Below the pieces are notes generated by a model, which made no database searches, was not told the DNA's origin, and saw nothing but the letters and a program-made list of their open reading frames with translations. From assembly GCA_016178135.1 (NCBI GenBank), contig JACOTW010000004.1:2681-66680 (forward strand): 64,000 nt of DNA. The letters run 5' to 3'. This document shows positions 3,289 through 51,594 of the stretch, in pieces; the first letter of the stretch is position 1; every line of letters begins with the position of its first letter. This DNA is from Candidatus Saccharimonadota bacterium (GTDB taxonomy: Bacteria; Patescibacteriota; Saccharimonadia; Saccharimonadales; JACOTW01). The position numbers and the translations under genes were made by a program.

Positions 3289-5369
3289 TGTTGAAAAGAC
3301 TTTGCCTTTTTGCTGTACTAACTATAGTGGTCTCGGCCAGTTCTATTGTCGTTTTGGGGTCAAAAGCTGGTGCCGTCACTGCTACTGGCTGGAAAGCAGG
3401 CAGAATTATTGACGATATGGTCTTCACCAATAAAAATGCCATGAGCCTTAATGAAGTCCAGGATTTCTTGAATCAAAAAGTCGGCACCAACAGGGGCAAT
3501 TCATATTCAGTTCCAGGTGTATGCGATACAAATGGTACAAAAACCTCCGAGCTCGGTGGTGGGATAAGAGCACAATACGGAGCCTCTCGTGGTAATCCTG
3601 CGCCTTTCACCTGTCTCAAAGATTACTGGGAAGTACCCAAAACCGACCCAGCACCGGGCGTACCGGCCAGTAACTATGGTGGTGTGGCGATACCGACTGG
3701 AGCTAAAAGTGCTGCTCAACTTATATGGGAAGCTGGACAGCGCTATAACATCAGCCCTAAAGTCCTTTTGATAATGATCCAGAAAGAATCGGCTGGACCA
3801 CTTATTACGGATGATTGGCCATTTAGATCACAATACACCTATGCTATGGGGGCTCACTGTCCAGATAGTGGCCCAGGTGGCTCTGCTAATTGTGACCAAA
3901 ACTATGCTGGTTTTTCTATGCAAATTAACGAAAGTGCCCGTTTACTCCGCTACTATTTAGACAATATGAGTCAACCTTGGTGGAGCTATAAAAAACCTGG
4001 TATAAATAATATTTTATGGAATGTAGAGCCAACTGGTTGTGGCGGTGCAAACGTTAATATCGAAAACAAATCTACGGCAGCACTTTATACATACACCCCT
4101 TATCAGCCAAACCAAGCAGCTCTAAATAACATGTATGGCACTGGTGATGGTTGTAGTGCCTACGGTAATAGAAACTTCTGGCGAATGTATAACGATTGGT
4201 TCGGTCCTACCTTAGGTAGCCCACCAAATATCAATTGGAATTTTGAAACTCTTGATGGAACCGCTCAAAGTATAAGTACGGTTATAGGCTCAACAGGAAA
4301 CTACCCTTACACATTAACAGTAGGTGGCTGGTTGCATGTGTTTTATTATGATGTAGCTGGCGGTAATTTACGCCACGCTTGGATCGATCCAGCTGGTTGG
4401 CATTTTGAAACCATAGATGGTGCTGGTGGAGCTAATGGGCAAATTGATGCTGATGTTGGCGGAATGTCTAAAGCTATTGTATACAACAATCAGCTATATG
4501 TTATGTATCATGACTTCCAAAACAATAGTTTAAGAATCGCTTCATTAAGCGGAGGCATCTGGACGGCACAAACCCTAGATGGTACAGGTGGTACTAATGG
4601 ACGACTATCCGGCAATATGGGCTTAGATATTACAGCTATAACCAATGGAGATAGTCTACATCTATTTTATTCTGACGCTACCCAAGGCAATTTACGACAT
4701 GCATGGCACGATGGTTCGATATGGCGTTTTGAGAATCTTGATGGTACCCCAGCATCTATTGCTAGTAAAGACGGCAACATAGGTCAAGGCATTAAAGCCG
4801 AATTTATAGGCAATTCTATCCATGCTTTTTATTACGACGGTACTGCTGGTAATCTTAGGCATGCTTGGACTGACGCAAATGGTTGGCACTTTGAAGATTT
4901 AGATGGAAGCGGTAGCTCTGTTTCACGATATAACAGTACCCTAGGCTCCTCCCCTGAATTCGCTATATGGCAAGGCAGTTTGCATGTTTACTACCATGAT
5001 ATAGCCTACGGCACACTTAGGCATGCTTGGACTGACGCAAATGGTTGGCACTTTGAAGATTTAGATGGAAGCGGTAGCTCTGTTTCACGATACATCTCTA
5101 ACGTTGGGCTTCGTAGTAGTATAGTGATTGCTGGTAGCACTATGAATATTTTTTATGATGACGCTCCCACCAGATCCATAAGGCAGGCTTGGTTCGATGC
5201 TTATGGGTGGCATTTTATAAATATTGATGGTGAGTCAAATGCGGTATCTGGTACGGCCGGTCAATTTGGAGAATATTTATCTGCGACGTTGTTCATGCAA
5301 GATGTACAAGTATTTTACTTTAATGCTAGCGATTCCTCACTAAAGCATGCTTGGGGACCCCTGCGTTAA
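3285..5369 (+). CDS. Secreted protein: lysozyme/SLT-like N-terminal region plus about seven beta-propeller-like repeats
   Basis: 694 aa with a signal peptide. The IMIQKESAGP segment resembles the catalytic Glu-Ser region of lytic transglycosylases. The C-terminal half has a ~54-aa repeat, LH.FYYD...GNLRHAW.D..GWHFE.LDG, present about seven times. Confidence 0.6.
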   Translation: MMLKRLCLFAVLTIVVSASSIVVLGSKAGAVTATGWKAGRIIDDMVFTNKNAMSLNEVQDFLNQKVGTNRGNSYSVPGVCDTNGTKTSELGGGIRAQYGASRGNPAPFTCLKDYWEVPKTDPAPGVPASNYGGVAIPTGAKSAAQLIWEAGQRYNISPKVLLIMIQKESAGPLITDDWPFRSQYTYAMGAHCPDSGPGGSANCDQNYAGFSMQINESARLLRYYLDNMSQPWWSYKKPGINNILWNVEPTGCGGANVNIENKSTAALYTYTPYQPNQAALNNMYGTGDGCSAYGNRNFWRMYNDWFGPTLGSPPNINWNFETLDGTAQSISTVIGSTGNYPYTLTVGGWLHVFYYDVAGGNLRHAWIDPAGWHFETIDGAGGANGQIDADVGGMSKAIVYNNQLYVMYHDFQNNSLRIASLSGGIWTAQTLDGTGGTNGRLSGNMGLDITAITNGDSLHLFYSDATQGNLRHAWHDGSIWRFENLDGTPASIASKDGNIGQGIKAEFIGNSIHAFYYDGTAGNLRHAWTDANGWHFEDLDGSGSSVSRYNSTLGSSPEFAIWQGSLHVYYHDIAYGTLRHAWTDANGWHFEDLDGSGSSVSRYISNVGLRSSIVIAGSTMNIFYDDAPTRSIRQAWFDAYGWHFINIDGESNAVSGTAGQFGEYLSATLFMQDVQVFYFNASDSSLKHAWGPLR
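4854..5092 (+). repeat. Exact 77-bp direct repeat pair (4854-4930 and 5016-5092) inside the propeller-repeat CDS
   Basis: CTTAGGCATGCTTGGACTGACGCAAATGGTTGGCACTTTGAAGATTTAGATGGAAGCGGTAGCTCTGTTTCACGATA occurs twice. The offset is 162 bp, one repeat unit. Confidence 0.9.
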
Positions 5370-12722: not shown

Positions 12723-13709
12723 TTATTTATTTGCCGCCTCTTGGGCAATCCCTATCATCAAAGCAATATCTTCCTCGTATGGTCTAAAGAGTGAGTTGTC
12801 ACTATGATTTAACGAAACATCGACCTTGAAATCCTTATCCCGCTTATCAAAAGAGGCAACAATAAGACCATCTCCACTAAAAGATTCTAATATATTATGA
12901 GATGAAATTATGTAGGCACCATTATCCAATAAAAATTGTTTGCATTTTTGATGAGTCATTGGGTCATGTGAAAAAGTGTAGTGATGAGTTGATATGAAAA
13001 TAAATCTAACTTTATCTTCTTTTATGCTTTCTATCGCACCCTGAAGTGCATTAAGCTCAACCCCCTGTACATCCATGTGCAATATATCAATTTTTTTTAT
13101 ATGCTTCTCTTTTACCAACGAGTCAACCGACCTAATTATGGATTGCTTTTTTTGGCTGGGGTCTGAATCAAGAGTAAACTCTATCTTTTTGCCATCTTCA
13201 TTTCCTGCAGCACTATCAATGAAAGTAATTCTATCTGCAAGACCGTTAATAGCCGCGTTAGCTTCTCCGATTTTCCTGTTTACAGGATCAGGCTCACAAG
13301 CCAGTGCCCTACTATTTTTAAATTGATAGAGTAACCAAAGGCTATAGTAAGACCAGAAACTGCCAAGCTCCAAAATCGTAGGTGCGCCTTTAAGTCTCTT
13401 TAGTACTTCGTAATAAAGTTTTTCTTCTTGTGGTTCATGATGACCGTTCAATTTAGTAATAATTTCTTTCATCCAGTCGCCGTGGTAACCGCCAGAAATA
13501 ACTTTTAACCCATTGTGTAGTATTTGCACCTCTTTGCCCTTGCATACCTCTACATTGCCCGCATATTTAACTTTCGGTATATAGTCACAATCATGGCATG
13601 AAATTGTCATTTCTATTCTTTGCGCAATATCCTTGCGCCAAGGATTTATTGCGTTAAGTTGAGCGATTGGATCAATTGGAGTACGTGATTTGCGCCTAGA
13701 TATTTTCAT
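12723..13709 (-). CDS. FkbM-family methyltransferase
   Basis: 328 aa with ILELGSFWSYYS and ILHMDVQGVELNAL. Confidence 0.7.
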   Translation of the reverse strand: MKISRRKSRTPIDPIAQLNAINPWRKDIAQRIEMTISCHDCDYIPKVKYAGNVEVCKGKEVQILHNGLKVISGGYHGDWMKEIITKLNGHHEPQEEKLYYEVLKRLKGAPTILELGSFWSYYSLWLLYQFKNSRALACEPDPVNRKIGEANAAINGLADRITFIDSAAGNEDGKKIEFTLDSDPSQKKQSIIRSVDSLVKEKHIKKIDILHMDVQGVELNALQGAIESIKEDKVRFIFISTHHYTFSHDPMTHQKCKQFLLDNGAYIISSHNILESFSGDGLIVASFDKRDKDFKVDVSLNHSDNSLFRPYEEDIALMIGIAQEAANK

Positions 13710-14896
13710 TTTATTCCTATACTTAAGTGAATATTAGGCGTTACGATATATGGTGAAATATAATCTTTTTTTATTGAAAAACTTATAGCGTCAGACCACC
13801 AGTCAACGACACTATTACCATCCTCTTTCAATAACGCTAGATCTACTGTGTACTGGCCATCGGATAATATATTCTCAAATATTACTTGAAAATTATATTT
13901 CGATTCTCTGGAAATTTTGGGTATTTTTACTTTTAACATATGGCTGTTTGCCCCAAGAACCGATAGCCCTTCAGCGTTTTTTATCAAAAAACCGAATATT
14001 GGATGAGTTAATTCTAAGCTTGATATGATATTACCTTTTATGGAAACTTCTATATTATTAACACTAACACCTATATCCTGTATTGTCATTGGAGTTTCGC
14101 CCCAACGATTTTGTGATTCAGCGACTGTCGCTACACCTGGATCTCCTCCTATAAATAATTCGGTGTAAGCTTGTGCGATTTGATCTGTATCTCCTTGTGA
14201 TTGAATCATACCACCATCTATCAATAGTGCTTTATTACAAAATTGTCTAATTGCGTTCATGTCGTGACTCACAAACACCACTGTTTTTTTATCTTTTTTC
14301 AGTTTCTTGAAATAATTGAAGCATTTGCGCTGGAAGTCGGCGTCTCCTACAGCTAGAACTTCATCAATAAGTAAAATGTCAGCTTTGGCGCGAATAGCCA
14401 TTGAAAAAGCTAAACGAACTTGCATGCCAGACGAATAGTTTTTGAGCTTTTGATCCATAAATTTTTCCAACTCGGCAAATTCAACTATGTCATCATACTG
14501 ATCGTCAATTTCTTTTTTACTGAAGCCTAGTAGCGCGCCGTTTAGATAAACGTTCTCACGGCCAGTTAGCTCTGGACTAAAACCAACACCTAGTTCAATA
14601 AACGGCACTAGCTTGCCGGTTACCTGAATCGATCCTTTGGTTGGCTGGTAAATGCCTGCTAACATTTTTAAGAGGGTGCTTTTGCCACTACCGTTACGTC
14701 CGACGATGCCAAAAAATTCGCCTTTTTTTACTTCAAAACTTACATTTTTTAGAGCATGTTGAGTTTCATAAGAACGATTTTTACGGATAAGTCTAAATAT
14801 GCCCGTGAAAACGTTTTTTATTGATCCTATCTTTTCGTGCGGTAAACGAAAGTTTTTGGAAACACCACTAACCTTTATAGCAATATCGTCCGACAT
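13706..14896 (-). CDS. wzt: Polysaccharide-export ABC transporter ATP-binding protein (Wzt/TagH-type) with a C-terminal extra domain
   Basis: 396 aa with Walker A GRNGSGKST, signature YSSGMQVRL and Walker B ILLIDEV. A ~150-aa C-terminal domain resembles the glycan-terminus-binding domain of Wzt proteins. Confidence 0.85.
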   Translation of the reverse strand: MSDDIAIKVSGVSKNFRLPHEKIGSIKNVFTGIFRLIRKNRSYETQHALKNVSFEVKKGEFFGIVGRNGSGKSTLLKMLAGIYQPTKGSIQVTGKLVPFIELGVGFSPELTGRENVYLNGALLGFSKKEIDDQYDDIVEFAELEKFMDQKLKNYSSGMQVRLAFSMAIRAKADILLIDEVLAVGDADFQRKCFNYFKKLKKDKKTVVFVSHDMNAIRQFCNKALLIDGGMIQSQGDTDQIAQAYTELFIGGDPGVATVAESQNRWGETPMTIQDIGVSVNNIEVSIKGNIISSLELTHPIFGFLIKNAEGLSVLGANSHMLKVKIPKISRESKYNFQVIFENILSDGQYTVDLALLKEDGNSVVDWWSDAISFSIKKDYISPYIVTPNIHLSIGIK

Positions 14897-14999
14897 CTAT
14901 AGACCCATCCCTTGACAAGTGAATAGAACACATGTTACTATGTACGTACAATGCCTTAGGGCTCCGAGGATCTCGCGCAAGTGGGGTCCGATTTTTTTA

Positions 15000-15401
15000 T
15001 CAGACATTCCGTACTCCGTCCAGTTCTTTATGTAACCTACCTATTACCTTTTCAAATTCTGTTTTACTAATTTTATACATTTTTCTTTGTAGCCTCTTTG
15101 AATCATATAATCTTAACTGGGATATTATAGCCGAATAGTCTTGGTTGTCATGTCTAAGTTGTAGGTAGTGGAGATTTTCGGGTTTTATTTTTGTCGATAA
15201 TGGCACACCCCAAAAGACAAATTTATTAAACTTACGTGCCACCAAAACAGGACGTTCAAAGAGTTCGTTTTTGCCATCCTGTTCAAAACCAACATTCAAC
15301 CCTAGTGAGCACCACCATACTTCAGCATTCTTGCAAAAAGCATTATTTGTATTTTCTTCAATGATTTTCTTGATACCATTCCAGCTGTCAAAATCTTTCA
15401 T
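15000..15401 (-). CDS. PemK/MazF-like toxin-fold protein
   Basis: 133 aa. AEVWWCSLGLNVGFEQDGKNELFERPVLV matches the G.E..G.RP.LV core of PemK/MazF-family proteins. Confidence 0.55.
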   Translation of the reverse strand: MKDFDSWNGIKKIIEENTNNAFCKNAEVWWCSLGLNVGFEQDGKNELFERPVLVARKFNKFVFWGVPLSTKIKPENLHYLQLRHDNQDYSAIISQLRLYDSKRLQRKMYKISKTEFEKVIGRLHKELDGVRNV

Positions 15402-15403
15402 CG

Positions 15404-16027
15404 TTACAGGTTCTCCTTGGGCTTCTTGGGCATGTGCCCGGGTTCGAGGTTGACTTTTGTAGTCTTTTTTGCTATATTTAGCCTATCACCATTGCCAGAT
15501 ACGCCTAAGGTTTCGACCGACCGCCGAGTCTGGCTCTTTTTATACTCTATAGCATTCCTAATCTGTTCCGCCTTAATAATATGTTGATAGAACGGCTGCA
15601 ATAACTGAGAGTACTTGTGGGTCGGTGTAATGATTTTAAGAAGCTTCTTATTATCCAAAAGATACTCCACTAGGCAGGCAAAGTCCCCATCACCCGTCAC
15701 TATGATGGCTCTATCGTAATGCTTGTACTCTATTGCTGCCGCATGCAGGACAAGCTCAGCATCAACGTTACCTTTTACTGTTTCTTTGCCATTCTCAAAA
15801 TAACGCACTGTGGGCTTAAAAATAAGAATAAATCCTGCGCTCTGTAGTTGTGTATAAAGTTTCTGGTTATTTGCAACCAGACCAATAAACATAAAAGCCT
15901 TCTCGATATCATGTTTATTCTTTAGGTAGAGACGTAACTTTTTATAATCTAACCGCCAGCCAAGTGAACGAACCCCTAGGTTTAAGTTCTGGCTATCTAT
16001 GAAGGCGTAATTCTTCCCCTTAGTCAT
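15404..16027 (-). CDS. NYN (LabA-like) domain protein, predicted RNase fold
   Basis: 207 aa with YAFIDSQNLN and IVTGDGDFACLVEYL, typical NYN/LabA motifs. Its start codon overlaps the wzm stop by one base. Confidence 0.7.
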   Translation of the reverse strand: MTKGKNYAFIDSQNLNLGVRSLGWRLDYKKLRLYLKNKHDIEKAFMFIGLVANNQKLYTQLQSAGFILIFKPTVRYFENGKETVKGNVDAELVLHAAAIEYKHYDRAIIVTGDGDFACLVEYLLDNKKLLKIITPTHKYSQLLQPFYQHIIKAEQIRNAIEYKKSQTRRSVETLGVSGNGDRLNIAKKTTKVNLEPGHMPKKPKENL

Positions 16028-16839
16028 TACACATTCTCCGCAAAGCTAGGAGCTTGTTTTTTGAAATATACAGTAGATACAAGAACGACAGTTGCTACGA
16101 TTCCAAGCGGAACCAAGTACGCCAGCTTACTGCCAAAGACCGAGCCAACCGTAGCTGTTTGATTGGTAATCAACCCATACCGAGCATCTTGAATGATTTG
16201 AGCCAGGGGATTTAACATCATTATTTTGCCCAACATCTCGCTCTTGCCACTGACGAACGAAAAAGCGTAAAGAATAGGAGTAGCGTAAAAAGCCGCCTGA
16301 ATTAATACTTCCCATATGTAATTTATATCTCTAAAGCGAACAAAAGCGGCACTCAAGAAAAATCCTATTGCCAATGAAAATATAAAAAGTTCGCCTATTA
16401 GCAAAGGCAGAAAAATCAAATTCTGATTGGGTTCTGCTTTGCCCAGCCACATAAACAACGACACAACTAGAAGATTCAGGGAAAGATTTATTAGTGCCGA
16501 GAAGGAGCTAGCCAATACAATAACATAGCGTGGAAAGTTTACTTTACGCATAATATCGCCCTTACCAACTATAGCGCCGACACTCCCAGTAGTAACTTCC
16601 ACGAAGTAGTTCCATAAAATTATTCCGAGTAATAGGTAAATACCAAAATGCGGAACGTCGCCACCGGTTTTTAGAACCTGAACAAAAACCACGTATAGAA
16701 TCATGAATAAAAACAGTGGCCTTAGTAATGTCCACAGATATCCAAGCACGGAATTTTGGTACCGTAGTTTGAAGTCAGTTTTTACCATCTGCTTGAGTAA
16801 AATTATGGAATATCTGTAGCGTGCGCTTAATTTTTTCAC
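16027..16839 (-). CDS. wzm: ABC-2 type polysaccharide-export permease (Wzm/TagG-type)
   Basis: It has KTDFKLRYQNSVLGYLW and six TM segments. The track ORF extends to a TTG at 16908, but that extension is read from a family B TIR fragment. I prefer the GTG at 16839. The start is uncertain. Confidence 0.75.
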   Translation of the reverse strand: MKKLSARYRYSIILLKQMVKTDFKLRYQNSVLGYLWTLLRPLFLFMILYVVFVQVLKTGGDVPHFGIYLLLGIILWNYFVEVTTGSVGAIVGKGDIMRKVNFPRYVIVLASSFSALINLSLNLLVVSLFMWLGKAEPNQNLIFLPLLIGELFIFSLAIGFFLSAAFVRFRDINYIWEVLIQAAFYATPILYAFSFVSGKSEMLGKIMMLNPLAQIIQDARYGLITNQTATVGSVFGSKLAYLVPLGIVATVVLVSTVYFKKQAPSFAENV

Positions 16840-16860
16840 GTTCTTCCATTTTATAGTTTT

Positions 16861-16893
16861 TACTGGACTTACGCAAAGCTCCCCATTCCCAGC
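16861..16893 (-). repeat. Family B terminal fragment
   Basis: TACTGGACTTACGCAAAGCTCCCCATTCCCAGC matches one end of family B. Confidence 0.6.
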
Positions 16894-16950
16894 AATTTTA
16901 TACAACAACTTAGATTTTGGTTTTTAACAGAGGTAGTGTAGGCTGAAAAT

Positions 16951-36093: not shown

Positions 36094-36510
36094 TTAATGG
36101 TTTTGGGTGGGCAGGATGTGCAGTTGTTTGCCGAGGATTTCTTCAAAAACCACAAAGTCTTTATCAAGAGTCACCAGAGGCAAGCCGGTTTCCTTGGCTA
36201 GGGCGGCGATCCAAAGGTCATTATGCGACAATGCCCGCCCGCGTCGCTCGGCGTAAACGTAGAGTTCTGCGTAATGGGCGGCCGTTTCAACTCGAGCCAA
36301 TTCAACGCGCACATACGGCTGGGACAGAAACTGTTCCAGTGTTTGTTCATTATGCTCCCGACGCGAACCCTTAAGGTATCCGTACTTTAGTTCGCCAATA
36401 ACTACAAAAGGCATGACAAGCTCCTTAGCCGAATTGATTACCTCCACTACCGTTTTATTGCCTTCTAGAAGCGCATTGTAGGCAACTGTGTCCAGAATCA
36501 CTTGCGCCAC
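36094..36510 (-). CDS. vapC: PIN-domain toxin VapC
   Basis: 138 aa with acidic residues in VILDT and LVTLDKDF. It overlaps the upstream antitoxin gene by 13 nt. Confidence 0.8.
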   Translation of the reverse strand: MAQVILDTVAYNALLEGNKTVVEVINSAKELVMPFVVIGELKYGYLKGSRREHNEQTLEQFLSQPYVRVELARVETAAHYAELYVYAERRGRALSHNDLWIAALAKETGLPLVTLDKDFVVFEEILGKQLHILPTQNH

Positions 36511-36770
36511 TCTCTCTCGGCCATATAGCGCTTTTGCAAACGGTCTTCTTCATCAAGTACTGCAATAGTCTCATTATCTACACCGCGTCCAATAAACCAG
36601 TCCAACATCTCACTCAAACTCTCATTTGTATTATTTGGGAGATGATTATGGGCAACCAGATCACCCAAAACAATTTGGTTCAAGCTTTTGCCAGTGATCT
36701 TTGCCCTTTTTCTTAGAGCCTTATCTAGGGCTGGGGGGATATTTCGTAATGTATATTGTATTGTAGGCAT
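36498..36770 (-). CDS. vapB: Antitoxin (FitA/VapB-like, RHH-type N-terminus)
   Basis: 90 aa. IQYTLRNIPPALDKALRKRAKITGKSLNQIV resembles RHH/FitA-type antitoxins. Confidence 0.6.
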   Translation of the reverse strand: MPTIQYTLRNIPPALDKALRKRAKITGKSLNQIVLGDLVAHNHLPNNTNESLSEMLDWFIGRGVDNETIAVLDEEDRLQKRYMAEREWRK

Positions 36771-49809: not shown

Positions 49810-50136
49810 ATGGACTTTTTAACTCAAAAACTACTTTATCTGGCAGCAGCAATACCTTGCCCTGCCGACAACCCAAGCGTTGACGGTTTCGAGACAGGCT
49901 TACCTTCCACTTGTGCCGATTCGAATGCCCTTAGAAGTATTTTGCAAATTGTCTTTGGTGTTATTGCGGTTACGACGGTTATATTTATTATCATCAGTGC
50001 CATTCGCTATTCGACCAGTATTGGCAACCCTCAAGCTACCGAAAAAATCCGTAATTCCATTGTTTTCGCGGCGATTGGCCTGGCTATTGCTATGTCGGCT
50101 GAAATCATTGTAACGTTTGTATTGGGACGGGTATAA
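49810..50136 (+). CDS. VirB2/TrbC-like pilin paralog 3
   Basis: 108 aa with the module IIISAIRYSTSIGNPQATEKIRNSIVFAAIGLAI. Confidence 0.6.
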   Translation: MDFLTQKLLYLAAAIPCPADNPSVDGFETGLPSTCADSNALRSILQIVFGVIAVTTVIFIIISAIRYSTSIGNPQATEKIRNSIVFAAIGLAIAMSAEIIVTFVLGRV

Positions 50137-50137
50137 C

Positions 50138-50545
50138 ATGCGAGCGATTTTTGTGGCAATACTTTTCATCACTACTTTGCTTTTTGGATTTGGAATGGTT
50201 AACAGGACTTGGGCGGTAGACGTTACCAACCCCGCTTGCGTGGATCAAGACGGACATCCATTGCCGGCAGATAGATTACCACTTGTTTGTAGGCCTGACC
50301 CTCCAAAAAATGCGTTGTTTGGTCCTGACGGTATTCTGACAACCGCTGTAAATATTTTATCTCTAGTAGCCGGTATCGCGGCTGTATTTGTTATTATGAT
50401 AGGTGGCGTTAAAATGATTACTAGCACCGGAGATAGTAATTCGGTCAAAGAGTCTCGCAACACCGTGCTTTATGCTGTTATTAGTCTGGCCATTGTAGTA
50501 TCGGCCCAGATTATCGTAAGATTTATATTAACTAAGCTTGAATAG
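50138..50545 (+). CDS. VirB2/TrbC-like pilin paralog 4
   Basis: The ATG at 50138 gives the signal peptide MRAIFVAILFITTLLFGFGMVNRTWA. The module is VIMIGGVKMITSTGDSNSVKESRNTVLYAVISLAI. Confidence 0.65.
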   Translation: MRAIFVAILFITTLLFGFGMVNRTWAVDVTNPACVDQDGHPLPADRLPLVCRPDPPKNALFGPDGILTTAVNILSLVAGIAAVFVIMIGGVKMITSTGDSNSVKESRNTVLYAVISLAIVVSAQIIVRFILTKLE

Positions 50546-51168: not shown

Positions 51169-51594
51169 ATGATCAAAATTATCAAAAAACTACTAATGAG
51201 CGTTTCAATGAGTGTCCTGTTCGCTGTACCGGTTTTGGCAACTCCGGCAATTGTCCATGCTGCAACAAATCTTACAAATAAAGTTAACTGTGGCGTTGAG
51301 CTCAATGTTGACCCAAATTGTGATCAAGCTCCGGATGATGCTGGATCAACCCAAGCAGTTAATGACATAGTCAAACTAGTCATTAACCTATTCTCAATAA
51401 TCGTTGGTGTTATTTCGGTTATCATGATTATTATCGGAGGTCTTAAATACATTACTTCCGGAGGCGATTCTGCCAACGTTACTGGCGCCAAAAACACCAT
51501 ACTTTATGCTGTTATCGGTTTGGTAGTCGTTGCTCTTGCTCAATTTATCGTTCGTTTCGTACTTGCCAAAGTAAGTCCAGCTACTGGTCCGTAA
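51169..51594 (+). CDS. VirB2/TrbC-like pilin paralog 6
   Basis: 141 aa with the signal peptide MIKIIKKLLMSVSMSVLFAVPVLATPAIVHA. The module is VIMIIIGGLKYITSGGDSANVTGAKNTILYAVIGLVV. Confidence 0.65.
   Translation: MIKIIKKLLMSVSMSVLFAVPVLATPAIVHAATNLTNKVNCGVELNVDPNCDQAPDDAGSTQAVNDIVKLVINLFSIIVGVISVIMIIIGGLKYITSGGDSANVTGAKNTILYAVIGLVVVALAQFIVRFVLAKVSPATGP

Follow-up and report, generated by a model that had tools for sequence, protein, structure and literature searches.

Two RNase-fold genes inserted between wzm and wzt in a Saccharibacteria genome, each paired with a convergent predicted small RNA gene

In a Saccharibacteria genome, the NYN/LabA-fold gene and the MazF/PemK-fold gene that separate wzm from wzt do not form a pair; each is a separate insertion accompanied by its own predicted and previously undescribed small RNA (sRNA) gene on the opposite strand, an arrangement that recurs across candidate-phyla-radiation (CPR) bacteria. 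Both sRNA genes consist of a near-consensus sigma-70 promoter, a structured RNA of ~50-60 nt, and a terminator-like 3' hairpin (with a U run in the NYN RNA and in the local PemK copy) that abuts or overlaps the nuclease stop codon. Based on this arrangement, the two units are interpreted, with moderate confidence, as independent and apparently mobile cassettes of a putative RNase and a likely RNA antitoxin, type I-like in layout, though a type III-like mode is not excluded.

The wzm-wzt junction and its two insertions

The window analysed is a 64,000-nt stretch of the genome, in which the following features were identified, with transcript boundaries predicted from sequence:

16027..16908 (-): wzm, an ABC-2 permease gene with a likely true start near 16839, because homologues are 270 aa (homologue P0241 is 99% identical and 270 aa)
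16024..16039 (-): left copy of a degenerate direct repeat flanking the NYN cassette, GGAGAATGTGTAATGA
15404..16027 (-): NYN/LabA-like nuclease gene, with a folded core of residues 1 to about 165 (16027 to about 15533) and disordered residues 166-207
15485..15544 (+): NYN-associated sRNA, antisense to NYN codons about 162-181
15450..15478 (+): promoter of the NYN-associated sRNA, TTGACT, 17 nt, TGc-TATATT
15398..15416 (-): right copy of the direct repeat, GGAGAACCTGTAAcgATGA, which supplies the last NYN codons (ENL*) and the PemK-like start codon
15000..15401 (-): MazF/PemK-fold gene with a conserved ~24-aa N-terminal helix (MKDFDxWNxxKK)
14948..14999 (+): PemK-associated sRNA, ending at the base before the PemK-like stop codon (15000-15002)
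14912..14941 (+): promoter of the PemK-associated sRNA, TTGACA, 18 nt, TGt-TACTAT
13706..14896 (-): wzt, an ABC ATPase gene with a Wzt_C domain, displaced from wzm by the two insertions

The preliminary description of this region, which reported two nuclease ORFs and no recognisable antitoxin between wzm and wzt, is correct in its observations. The NYN ATG (16027-16025) shares its A with the wzm TAA stop, and the PemK-like ATG follows the NYN TAA after 2 nt ('CG'). The exporter genes were assigned by Pfam (ABC2_membrane, E 2.2e-12, for wzm; ABC_tran and Wzt_C for wzt) and, for wzm, by NCBIfam (Wzm/RfbD-like), and their usual adjacency was confirmed in relatives with 75-76% identical wzm (loci L167-L169), in which wzt starts within 0-2 nt of the wzm stop.

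The PemK-like protein (133 aa) matches the MazF/PemK family (PF02452) with E 1.2e-6 and 29.1 bits against a gathering cutoff of 23.1, across residues 25-125. Its AF2 model (pLDDT 86) matches solved MazF structures, with the top 50 Foldseek hits all MazF structures at probability 1.0 and target TM 0.65-0.79, in agreement with the MazF/Kid/CcdB SH3-like barrel fold. The family profile hits B. subtilis EndoA in the PDB (E 1.4e-6), aligning the invariant R50 with Arg25 and S69, the S/T of the 'PLST' motif, with Thr48, the catalytic residues of B. subtilis MazF. The NYN protein matches PF01936 (E 1.9e-15) and a PADLOC NYN model (E 1.2e-11), its model matches V. parahaemolyticus VPA0982 (PDB 2qip; Foldseek E 6e-9) and the MARF1 NYN domain, and D11, D89, D113, and D115 are invariant. 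Among defence-system models, PADLOC returned no hit for the PemK-like protein and, for the NYN protein, only the generic NYN model and a sub-threshold HEC-09 match (E 0.002), while NCBIfam returned nothing for either nuclease.

No MazE/PemI, AbrB, or RHH-type antitoxin gene was found. Only NYN lies upstream of the PemK-like gene in the window, where short ORFs are antisense or overlapping, and clustering of the upstream and downstream neighbours of 86 PemK-like copies, from 80 other loci, revealed no recurrent small partner, only housekeeping genes (rpoC, rpoB, dnaG, leuS, pheST, typA, lysS) that vary in size, strand, and family.

The interpretation offered in the preliminary description is only partly supported. 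Both domain calls are right, the genes do interrupt a normally contiguous pair without a protein antitoxin, and something unconventional and RNA-related does ride in the operon, but the proposal that the two genes form one module, with NYN or its basic tail as the antitoxin, is not supported. Conserved co-occurrence, named beforehand as the test of that proposal, is absent: profile searches of ORFs found a PemK-like gene within 4 kb at 0 of 80 NYN loci and an NYN gene within 5 kb at 1 of 80 PemK-like loci, 3.5 kb away on the other strand and belonging to a divergent subfamily.

The site instead occurs in three states: wzm directly followed by wzt (L167-L169), wzm-PemK-wzt without NYN (locus L001, with a 77% identical PemK-like protein), and wzm-NYN-PemK-wzt (the window and L166, a 99%-identical strain). 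The degenerate direct repeat flanking the NYN cassette can be compared to the uninterrupted junction of L001, GGAGAATCTGTAAatcATGA, and analogous ~33-nt repeats ending in ATGA flank the cassette at three further loci (L088, L133, and L089). PemK-like units also occur in multiple and tandem copies (three at locus L049, two at L077), and elsewhere the neighbours of both genes are variable housekeeping genes. The coexistence of empty, single, and double insertion states with flanking repeats offers a tractable handle on how such cassettes move.

Convergent predicted small RNA genes

Downstream of each nuclease gene lies a conserved element with a promoter directed into the nuclease gene. An equivalent promoter was found at 78 of 86 PemK-like copies (TTGACA/T, 16-18 nt, TAnnnT, with an extended TG in 50). 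For the NYN, the same promoter occupies the same position at 61 of 74 loci, and in 45 of these the conserved RNA begins exactly 7 nt after the -10 box. Within the window, a scan called both promoters and one terminator, at the PemK-associated sRNA. That RNA comprises a 5' ACAAUG, hairpin A (GCC-UUAG-GGC), a UCCGAG linker, hairpin B/terminator (14968-14989), and a U7 run, while the NYN-associated RNA comprises a 5' AUCACCAU segment, three nested helices (P1 GCCAGA/UCUGGC, P2, and P3 with a UUUCGA apical loop; the family consensus is written here as a UUCG loop closed by a U-A pair), and a U run.

Covariance models for the PemK-associated (R1) and NYN-associated (R2) RNAs identified the elements at 70 of about 86 PemK-like genes and 77 of 80 NYN genes, and almost nowhere else. 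In the window, R1 scores 42.4 bits (E 1.8e-9) and R2 scores 63.9 bits (E 7.5e-13), the latter being the only R2 hit. R1 hits lie at PemK-like 3' ends, with three extra (orphan) copies in 765 kb, one further hit in 408 kb of control DNA (the PemK-like 3' end of L166 itself), and one weak hit in the window (3526-3564 +, 18 bits) that lies inside a coding region without a promoter and is treated as chance. R2 hit nothing in 701 kb of PemK loci.

Covariation is strong in both RNAs. As MAFFT alignment alone misaligned the variable-length terminator hairpin, the sequences were realigned to the covariance models, a step that biases pair counts toward the model and for which shuffled and slid-partner controls are given. 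In the PemK-sRNA, 94.3% of cells are paired against 72.9% in shuffles, with 150 double-change cells against 40 and compensatory changes in 12 of 13 pairs; in the NYN-sRNA, 88.7% are paired against 72.6%, with 143 double-change cells against 42. Sliding partners by 1-3 columns collapses pairing to 34-61% in both.

A same-strand reading of the element, as a 3' UTR structure or type III-like RNA, was rejected in favour of the opposite strand due to promoter orientation, the U run, G-U asymmetry, and folding energy. G-U against A-C counts are 48:10 and 75:33 in the two RNAs, and the PemK-sRNA of the window folds at -18.6 kcal/mol on the + strand (z -2.6) compared to only -6.5 on the - strand (z +1.2).

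The ~45-aa basic tail of the NYN protein exists but is not a protein domain. It is read-through of the antisense sRNA gene and its promoter, with 'KVN' covering the -35 box and 'IAKK' the -10 box, and has pLDDT below 50 for residues 166-207. Across homologues the NYN ORF crosses the element in two frames or stops before it, with 54 stopping inside (in another frame, ...GRSKP*), 18 upstream, and 9 reading through, consistent with selection at the RNA level. The PemK stop codon lies 4-10 nt from the sRNA 3' end in most loci. Some apparent C-terminal tails in both gene families are read-through of antisense RNA genes, a general annotation trap.

Neither RNA matches a family in Rfam 15. Nothing overlaps 15485-15544, only a 12-bit hit (E 8.1) driven by terminator shape overlaps 14943-14998, and nine other loci gave nothing at the sRNA positions; a mir-90 hit inside wzt (30 bits against a cutoff of 68) and a BjrC68 hit (12 bits) are chance or reflect terminator shape. 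Full-text literature searches found no description of these RNAs or of sRNA-linked NYN or MazF genes in CPR bacteria.

Possible roles of the two cassettes

The favoured explanation, held with moderate confidence, is that two unrelated, independently acquired single-gene cassettes were inserted in tandem into the wzm-wzt junction, with each sRNA acting as the missing antitoxin or regulator of its nuclease. In this view the sRNA would be made constitutively and in excess, and its perfect complementarity to the 3' end or 3' UTR of the nuclease mRNA, extending over the stop-codon region for NYN, would trigger duplex cleavage or decay, such that nuclease protein would accumulate only when sRNA synthesis falls, a type I-like logic with enzyme toxins. 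Beyond the cis complementarity inherent to the arrangement, no extra complementarity was found between the NYN-sRNA and the NYN 5' UTR or start region (mean z -0.25, scattered positions). What the sequence comparisons establish is that both sRNA genes exist, on which strand, with what structure, conservation, and gene linkage, and that the cassettes are independent insertions, all with predicted transcript ends; transcription, nuclease activity, toxicity, the antitoxin role, and the antisense mechanism are inferred.

Several features fit this explanation poorly. The NYN family is very large and highly conserved (more than 7,900 clusters, with top hits 60-80% identical), which fits a housekeeping RNase better than a typical fast-evolving toxin. 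Unpaired nucleotides of both sRNAs are strongly conserved (5' ACAAAUGG and CCGAGA; 5' AUCACNAUG and CCUAAGG...GACCG), which pure cis-antisense action does not require and which points to recognition by a protein or a trans target. The PemK-sRNA overlaps only the 3' UTR and not the ORF, and because the shared hairpin is not followed by a U run on the nuclease strand, the model assumes read-through of the nuclease mRNA.

A tentative alternative, less likely than not, retains the architecture but has the sRNA neutralise the nuclease by binding the protein directly, occupying the RNA-binding groove as a pseudo-substrate. Highly conserved unpaired motifs alongside covarying stems are typical of protein-bound RNAs, and the type III toxins ToxN, AbiQ, and CptN have a Kid/MazF-like fold, where the gene described here has a predicted true MazF fold. 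The conserved 5' UACAAAU resembles MazF recognition sites such as ACA and UACAU, and the PemK-like proteins carry the additional N-terminal helix, of no assigned role. Some NYN loci (L103, L104, and L106) carry two tandem copies of the sRNA core, with duplicated 'RRSVETLG' tails in matching proteins, which echoes repeat-array antitoxins. However, type III antitoxins are tandem repeats upstream of the toxin on the same strand and are processed by it, whereas here the RNA is a single convergent unit with its own promoter, and no NYN or PIN nuclease is known to have an RNA antitoxin.

It is also possible, though unlikely, that these are not toxin-antitoxin systems and that one or both proteins are ordinary RNA-processing enzymes, with the sRNA as an expression-tuning antisense RNA or a dedicated substrate or cofactor. 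NYN is very widespread in CPR bacteria, bacterial NYN proteins, for which functional studies are noted to be lacking, have been linked to tRNA/rRNA processing by gene neighbourhood only (PMC5499597), and both genes sit among housekeeping genes and are often translationally coupled to the upstream gene. Against this, presence/absence polymorphism at the wzm-wzt site, flanking direct repeats, multiple and tandem PemK-like copies, and orphan sRNA copies are all hallmarks of accessory, mobile, or selfish modules, and the PemK-like distribution is patchy (about 585 hits among 185,579 species genomes).

The two-nuclease module is very unlikely, as it rests only on the tight same-strand spacing in the window and in L166 and the lack of a protein antitoxin, against the absence of co-occurrence, the PemK-like gene without NYN at this same site in L001, and a disordered tail that most homologues lack. 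That the elements act as DNA (recombination or attachment sites, or a bidirectional terminator plus a promoter for the downstream host gene) is least likely, as, despite their position at cassette ends, the potential of the hairpins to form in DNA, and the need of insertions for some end-recognition signal, the promoters point into the nuclease gene, the conserved sequence starts at the predicted +1 and ends (in the NYN RNA and the window's PemK copy) with a hairpin plus U run, and strand asymmetry indicates selection on one RNA strand.

A more speculative and doubtful reading is that these would be the first RNA antitoxins to directly bind and neutralise a bona fide MazF-family RNase and an NYN-family RNase, forming new type III-like families with a convergent layout. 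They would ride on a previously unrecognised kind of promoter-less mobile cassette that inserts at or just upstream of a host gene's start codon, the NYN cassette at the start codon itself, borrowing its RBS and ATG and regenerating them through a ~15-35 bp target duplication, and would serve as abundant addiction or abortive-infection modules across CPR bacteria.

If the sRNAs are antitoxins, this would explain why two widespread "orphan" RNase gene families in CPR/Patescibacteria have no antitoxin and would extend RNA-antitoxin control to MazF-proper and NYN nucleases. The analysis adds two well-supported structured RNA families to a superphylum where almost no sRNAs are known. As CPR bacteria mostly lack CRISPR-Cas and are thought to rely on restriction-modification and abortive-infection or TA-type defence (PMC4742961), abundant RNase and sRNA cassettes are obvious candidates for such a role.

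Comparison with described systems

The type I systems txpA/RatA and bsrG/SR4 of B. subtilis and par Fst/RNA II of E. faecalis, along with SymE/SymR and RalR/RalA, which have enzyme toxins, share with the cassettes a small antisense RNA (predicted here) with its own promoter, transcribed toward the toxin gene and sharing or abutting its 3' end and terminator, and the lack of a protein antitoxin. Classical type I toxins are membrane peptides of ~30-60 aa, usually hydrophobic, whereas the candidates here are predicted soluble RNase folds of 133 aa and ~165 aa, for which SymE and RalR are precedents as non-peptide toxins. The sRNAs are only ~50-60 nt and their unpaired sequences are conserved across phyla-level distances.

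The type III systems ToxIN, CptIN, TenpIN, and AbiQ/antiQ likewise pair an endoribonuclease toxin with a structured RNA, and the ToxN-class toxins share the Kid/MazF-like fold with the PemK-like protein. Their antitoxins are repeat arrays separated from the toxin gene by a terminator, while here the RNA is single, downstream, and on the opposite strand, with only a few loci having two tandem cores, and the NYN fold is not known among type III toxins. For the LabA/NYN proteins (COG1432), the fold and conserved acidic residues agree, but the literature that could be searched mentions neither an associated antisense sRNA nor cassette-like mobility. Canonical type II MazEF/PemIK shares PemK_toxin membership, the predicted fold, and the catalytic Arg and Ser/Thr, but no MazE/PemI-type partner occurs at any of the 80 loci and the N-terminal helix is additional. 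By contrast, the same window holds a conventional type II PIN pair at 36094-36770.

Gene content of the wzm-wzt interval and independence of the two nuclease genes

The interval contains four ORFs, all on the minus strand:
16027-16908 (-), wzm
15404-16027 (-), an NYN-domain ORF
15000-15401 (-), a PemK/MazF-like ORF
13706-14896 (-), wzt

The ATG of the NYN ORF shares its A with the TAA stop codon of wzm, the PemK-like ATG follows the NYN stop codon after 2 nt, and a 103-nt spacer precedes wzt. The wzm ORF as listed mechanically (293 aa, TTG start) is probably too long, with 16839-16908 in doubt, as close homologues, including one that is 99% identical, are 270 aa. All four assignments were confirmed with Pfam (NYN, E 1.9e-15; PemK_toxin, 29.1 bits against a cutoff of 23.1; ABC2_membrane; and ABC_tran + Wzt_C), and identical proteins are annotated from Candidatus Saccharibacteria. 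Structure predictions were in agreement, with the PemK-like model (pLDDT 86) matching solved MazF structures only and the NYN model matching the LabA-like protein 2qip and the MARF1 NYN domain, while the C-terminal 42 residues of the NYN protein are predicted to be disordered. The PemK-like family retains the MazF catalytic Arg (R50, invariant) and Ser/Thr and adds a conserved 24-residue N-terminal helix, and the NYN family retains four invariant aspartates. The observation made in the preliminary description, that two nuclease-fold genes without a recognisable antitoxin separate wzm from wzt, is therefore confirmed. A conventional type II-looking pair elsewhere in the window (36094-36770, -) provides a useful internal contrast to these antitoxin-less nucleases, with a PIN-domain ORF (138 aa, Pfam E 4e-16) overlapping an upstream 90-aa ORF by 13 nt and a TTGACA-17-TATATT promoter at 36805-36777.

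To explore whether the two genes form a module, 80 genomic loci encoding PemK-like homologues (44-57% identity, ±5 kb) and 80 metagenomic loci encoding NYN homologues (±4 kb) were collected. A search with an NYN profile identified an NYN gene near a PemK-like gene only once, at a distance of 3.5 kb, on the opposite strand and belonging to a divergent subfamily, and a search with a PemK profile returned nothing in the NYN loci. The neighbors of both genes are variable and mostly housekeeping, including rpoB/C, dnaG, aminoacyl-tRNA synthetases, ychF, and dnaK. The wzm-wzt site itself exists in three states: wzm directly abutting wzt, in relatives with 75-76% identical Wzm (loci L167, L168, and L169, and a JGI contig); wzm-PemK-wzt without NYN (locus L001, in which the PemK-like protein is 77% identical); and wzm-NYN-PemK-wzt (the window and L166, a 99%-identical strain). 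The interpretation offered previously was only partly supported, as both domain assignments held, while the proposals that the two genes are a pair and that NYN acts as the antitoxin are refuted by the lack of conserved co-occurrence, the criterion that had been set for them in advance.

Predicted convergent sRNA genes

Longer PemK-like homologues possess odd C-terminal tails, such as "SDPTCAESSEPEGHC", which matched a translation of the GC-rich DNA just downstream of the stop codon in the window, and extraction of the downstream DNA from all loci exposed a conserved element. Read on the opposite strand, this element is predicted to be a complete small gene, consisting of a promoter (TTGACA/T, 16-18 nt, TAnnnT) found at 78 of 86 copies and TG-extended in 50, followed about 7 nt later by 5'-ACAAAUGG, hairpin A, a (N)CCGAGA linker, and a GC-rich hairpin B with a tail that is a clear U run in this window and variably U-rich elsewhere. 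In the window, this promoter and terminator were called independently by the scanner, and the RNA would end one base before the PemK-like stop codon. The NYN family shows the same design, with a strong promoter at 61 of 74 loci and the conserved RNA starting exactly 7 nt after the -10 box in 45 of them, followed by 5'-AUCAC(C/G)AUG and three nested helices (the innermost capped by a UUCG-type loop) closed by a stem and a U run. The predicted elements in the window are:
14912-14941 (+), promoter of the PemK-associated sRNA (PemK-sRNA)
14948-14999 (+), PemK-sRNA
14968-14989 plus T7 (+), terminator of the PemK-sRNA
15450-15478 (+), promoter of the NYN-associated sRNA (NYN-sRNA)
15485-15544 (+), NYN-sRNA

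Covariance models were built for the PemK-sRNA (R1) and the NYN-sRNA (R2). In the window, R1 matched 14946-14991 (+; 42.4 bits, E 1.8e-9) and R2 matched 15485-15544 (+; 63.9 bits). R1 gave 70 hits at PemK-like 3' ends plus three extra copies in 765 kb and a single hit in 408 kb of control DNA, in the near-identical strain L166, while R2 matched 77 of 80 NYN loci and gave no hit in 701 kb of control DNA. A weak R1 match in the window (3526-3564, +; 18.4 bits, E 0.005) contains ACAAAUGG...CCUCCGAG but lies inside a 694-aa ORF with no promoter upstream and is probably due to chance. For the PemK-sRNA, 94.3% of cells were paired against 72.9% in shuffled alignments, with 150 double-change cells against 40, compensatory changes in 12 of 13 pairs, and a ratio of G-U to A-C cells of 48:10. 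For the NYN-sRNA, 88.7% of cells were paired against 72.6% in shuffled alignments, with 143 double-change cells against 42, compensatory changes in 10 of 12 pairs, and a ratio of G-U to A-C cells of 75:33. As the alignments were fitted to the models, which inflates pairing somewhat, these controls matter, and in both RNAs partners slid by 1-3 columns gave at most 61% paired. The strand assignment rests on the orientation of the promoters, the U run, the G-U/A-C asymmetry, and the folding of the PemK-sRNA of the window, at -18.6 kcal/mol (z -2.6) on the + strand and only -6.5 (z +1.2) on the - strand. Neither RNA matches Rfam 15, and no description of them was found in the literature searched.

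Both sRNAs carry a conserved unpaired CCGA(G/U) motif, immediately 5' of the 3'-terminal stem in the PemK-sRNA and just inside it in the NYN-sRNA, and a conserved 5' single-stranded octamer that starts at the predicted +1. Some NYN loci (L103, L104, and L106) have two tandem copies of the sRNA core, which, when read through, give duplicated 'RRSVETLG...' peptide tails (proteins P0141, P0217, and P0211). The design may extend beyond the family modeled here, as a divergent NYN subfamily (NYN gene at 991-1500, -, of locus L013) has a different convergent element (850-1060, +), composed of a promoter, a hairpin, and U8, that is not hit by R2.

The basic C-terminal tail noted in the preliminary description is explained by the way in which the NYN ORF meets its sRNA gene. 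In 54 loci the stop codon lies inside the sRNA, and in 43 of these it is the TAG of CCUUAGG, giving "...GRSKP*"; in 18 loci the stop codon lies before the structured part; and in nine, including the window, the ORF reads through the whole sRNA gene and its promoter. In the read-through form, "RRSVETLGxSGNGD" is the antisense of the RNA, "IAKK" covers the -10 box, and "KVN" covers the -35 box. The same nucleotides are conserved in two reading frames and in non-coding context, and selection therefore acts on the RNA or DNA and not on a peptide, in agreement with the predicted disorder of the tail.

Possible roles of the sRNAs

The analysis establishes that there are two independent cassettes, each with a nuclease gene that retains an intact catalytic signature and a tightly linked, structured, convergent sRNA gene identified by prediction, and that the 3' end of the sRNA is held within a few nucleotides of, or inside, the end of the nuclease ORF, whereas the activity and toxicity of the nucleases and the role of the sRNA as antitoxin or regulator are inferred. 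With moderate confidence, type I-like antisense control is favored, as the layout is that of the 3'-overlapping type I systems, the promoters are near-consensus, which implies an excess of sRNA, and for NYN the duplex would cover the stop-codon region. No conserved complementarity to the nuclease 5' region was found for the NYN-sRNA. The main alternative, considered possible but less likely, is type III-like binding of the sRNA to the protein, which is supported by the strong conservation of unpaired nucleotides that antisense action does not require, by the MazF-fold precedent of ToxN-class toxins, and by the occasional tandem duplication of the core. A regulatory or housekeeping role outside of toxin-antitoxin systems appears doubtful and is kept alive mainly by the breadth and conservation of the NYN family. 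The anomaly resolves into two new predicted sRNA families and a recurrent "RNase + convergent sRNA" cassette design that is widespread in CPR bacteria and that, on present sequence evidence, is best classed with the RNA-antitoxin systems, as a new form of them.

Signs of mobility and additional copies

The NYN cassette in the window is bracketed by a degenerate direct repeat, which corresponds to the single junction GGAGAATCTGTAAatcATGA in L001:
16039-16024, left copy, GGAGAATGTGTAATGA
15416-15398, right copy, GGAGAACCTGTAAcgATGA

Direct repeats of ~33 nt flank the NYN cassette in L088 (1600-1632 and 2252-2284; 29 of 33 identical), L133, and L089, three of the NYN loci, and in each case the left copy ends exactly at the NYN "ATGA". 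The cassette seems to borrow the RBS and start codon of the host gene and to regenerate them by target duplication, though the length is unusual for a transposase-type duplication and no mobilizing enzyme is evident. Exact direct repeats of 15-19 nt, upstream of the PemK-like start and just beyond the sRNA promoter, flank the PemK cassettes in L021, L006, and L020, suggesting that the PemK cassette is also inserted with a duplication. Most loci show no repeats, presumably because the insertions are old, and the inference of mobility therefore rests on few cases.

Tandem arrays of PemK-like genes occur, with three copies in L049 (1810-3263), a Sulfurovum MAG, and two in L077 (3736-4985). An sRNA element was detected for both copies in L077 and for the middle copy in L049, while the two flanking copies in L049 show only degenerate remnants that neither the promoter scan nor R1 picked up. 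The family also occurs outside of the CPR bacteria, in Sulfuricurvum, Trueperaceae, Saprospiraceae, and gammaproteobacterial and Rickettsiales MAGs. PemK-type sRNA genes are also present as orphan or second copies without an adjacent PemK-like gene, in L031 (1593-1638, -), L042 (5511-5562), and L063 (5552-5602), and in L001 (about 690-790) as a degenerate sRNA-like copy seen by eye that was not hit by R1. The copy in L031 has its own promoter and lies downstream of a cobalamin adenosyltransferase-like ORF, and these copies may be antitoxin-only remnants. Elsewhere in the window, two small ORFs (50117-50545 and 51169-51594, +) have T4SS-pilin (TrbC/VirB2-like) domains and may belong to a CPR pilus or conjugation-like locus.
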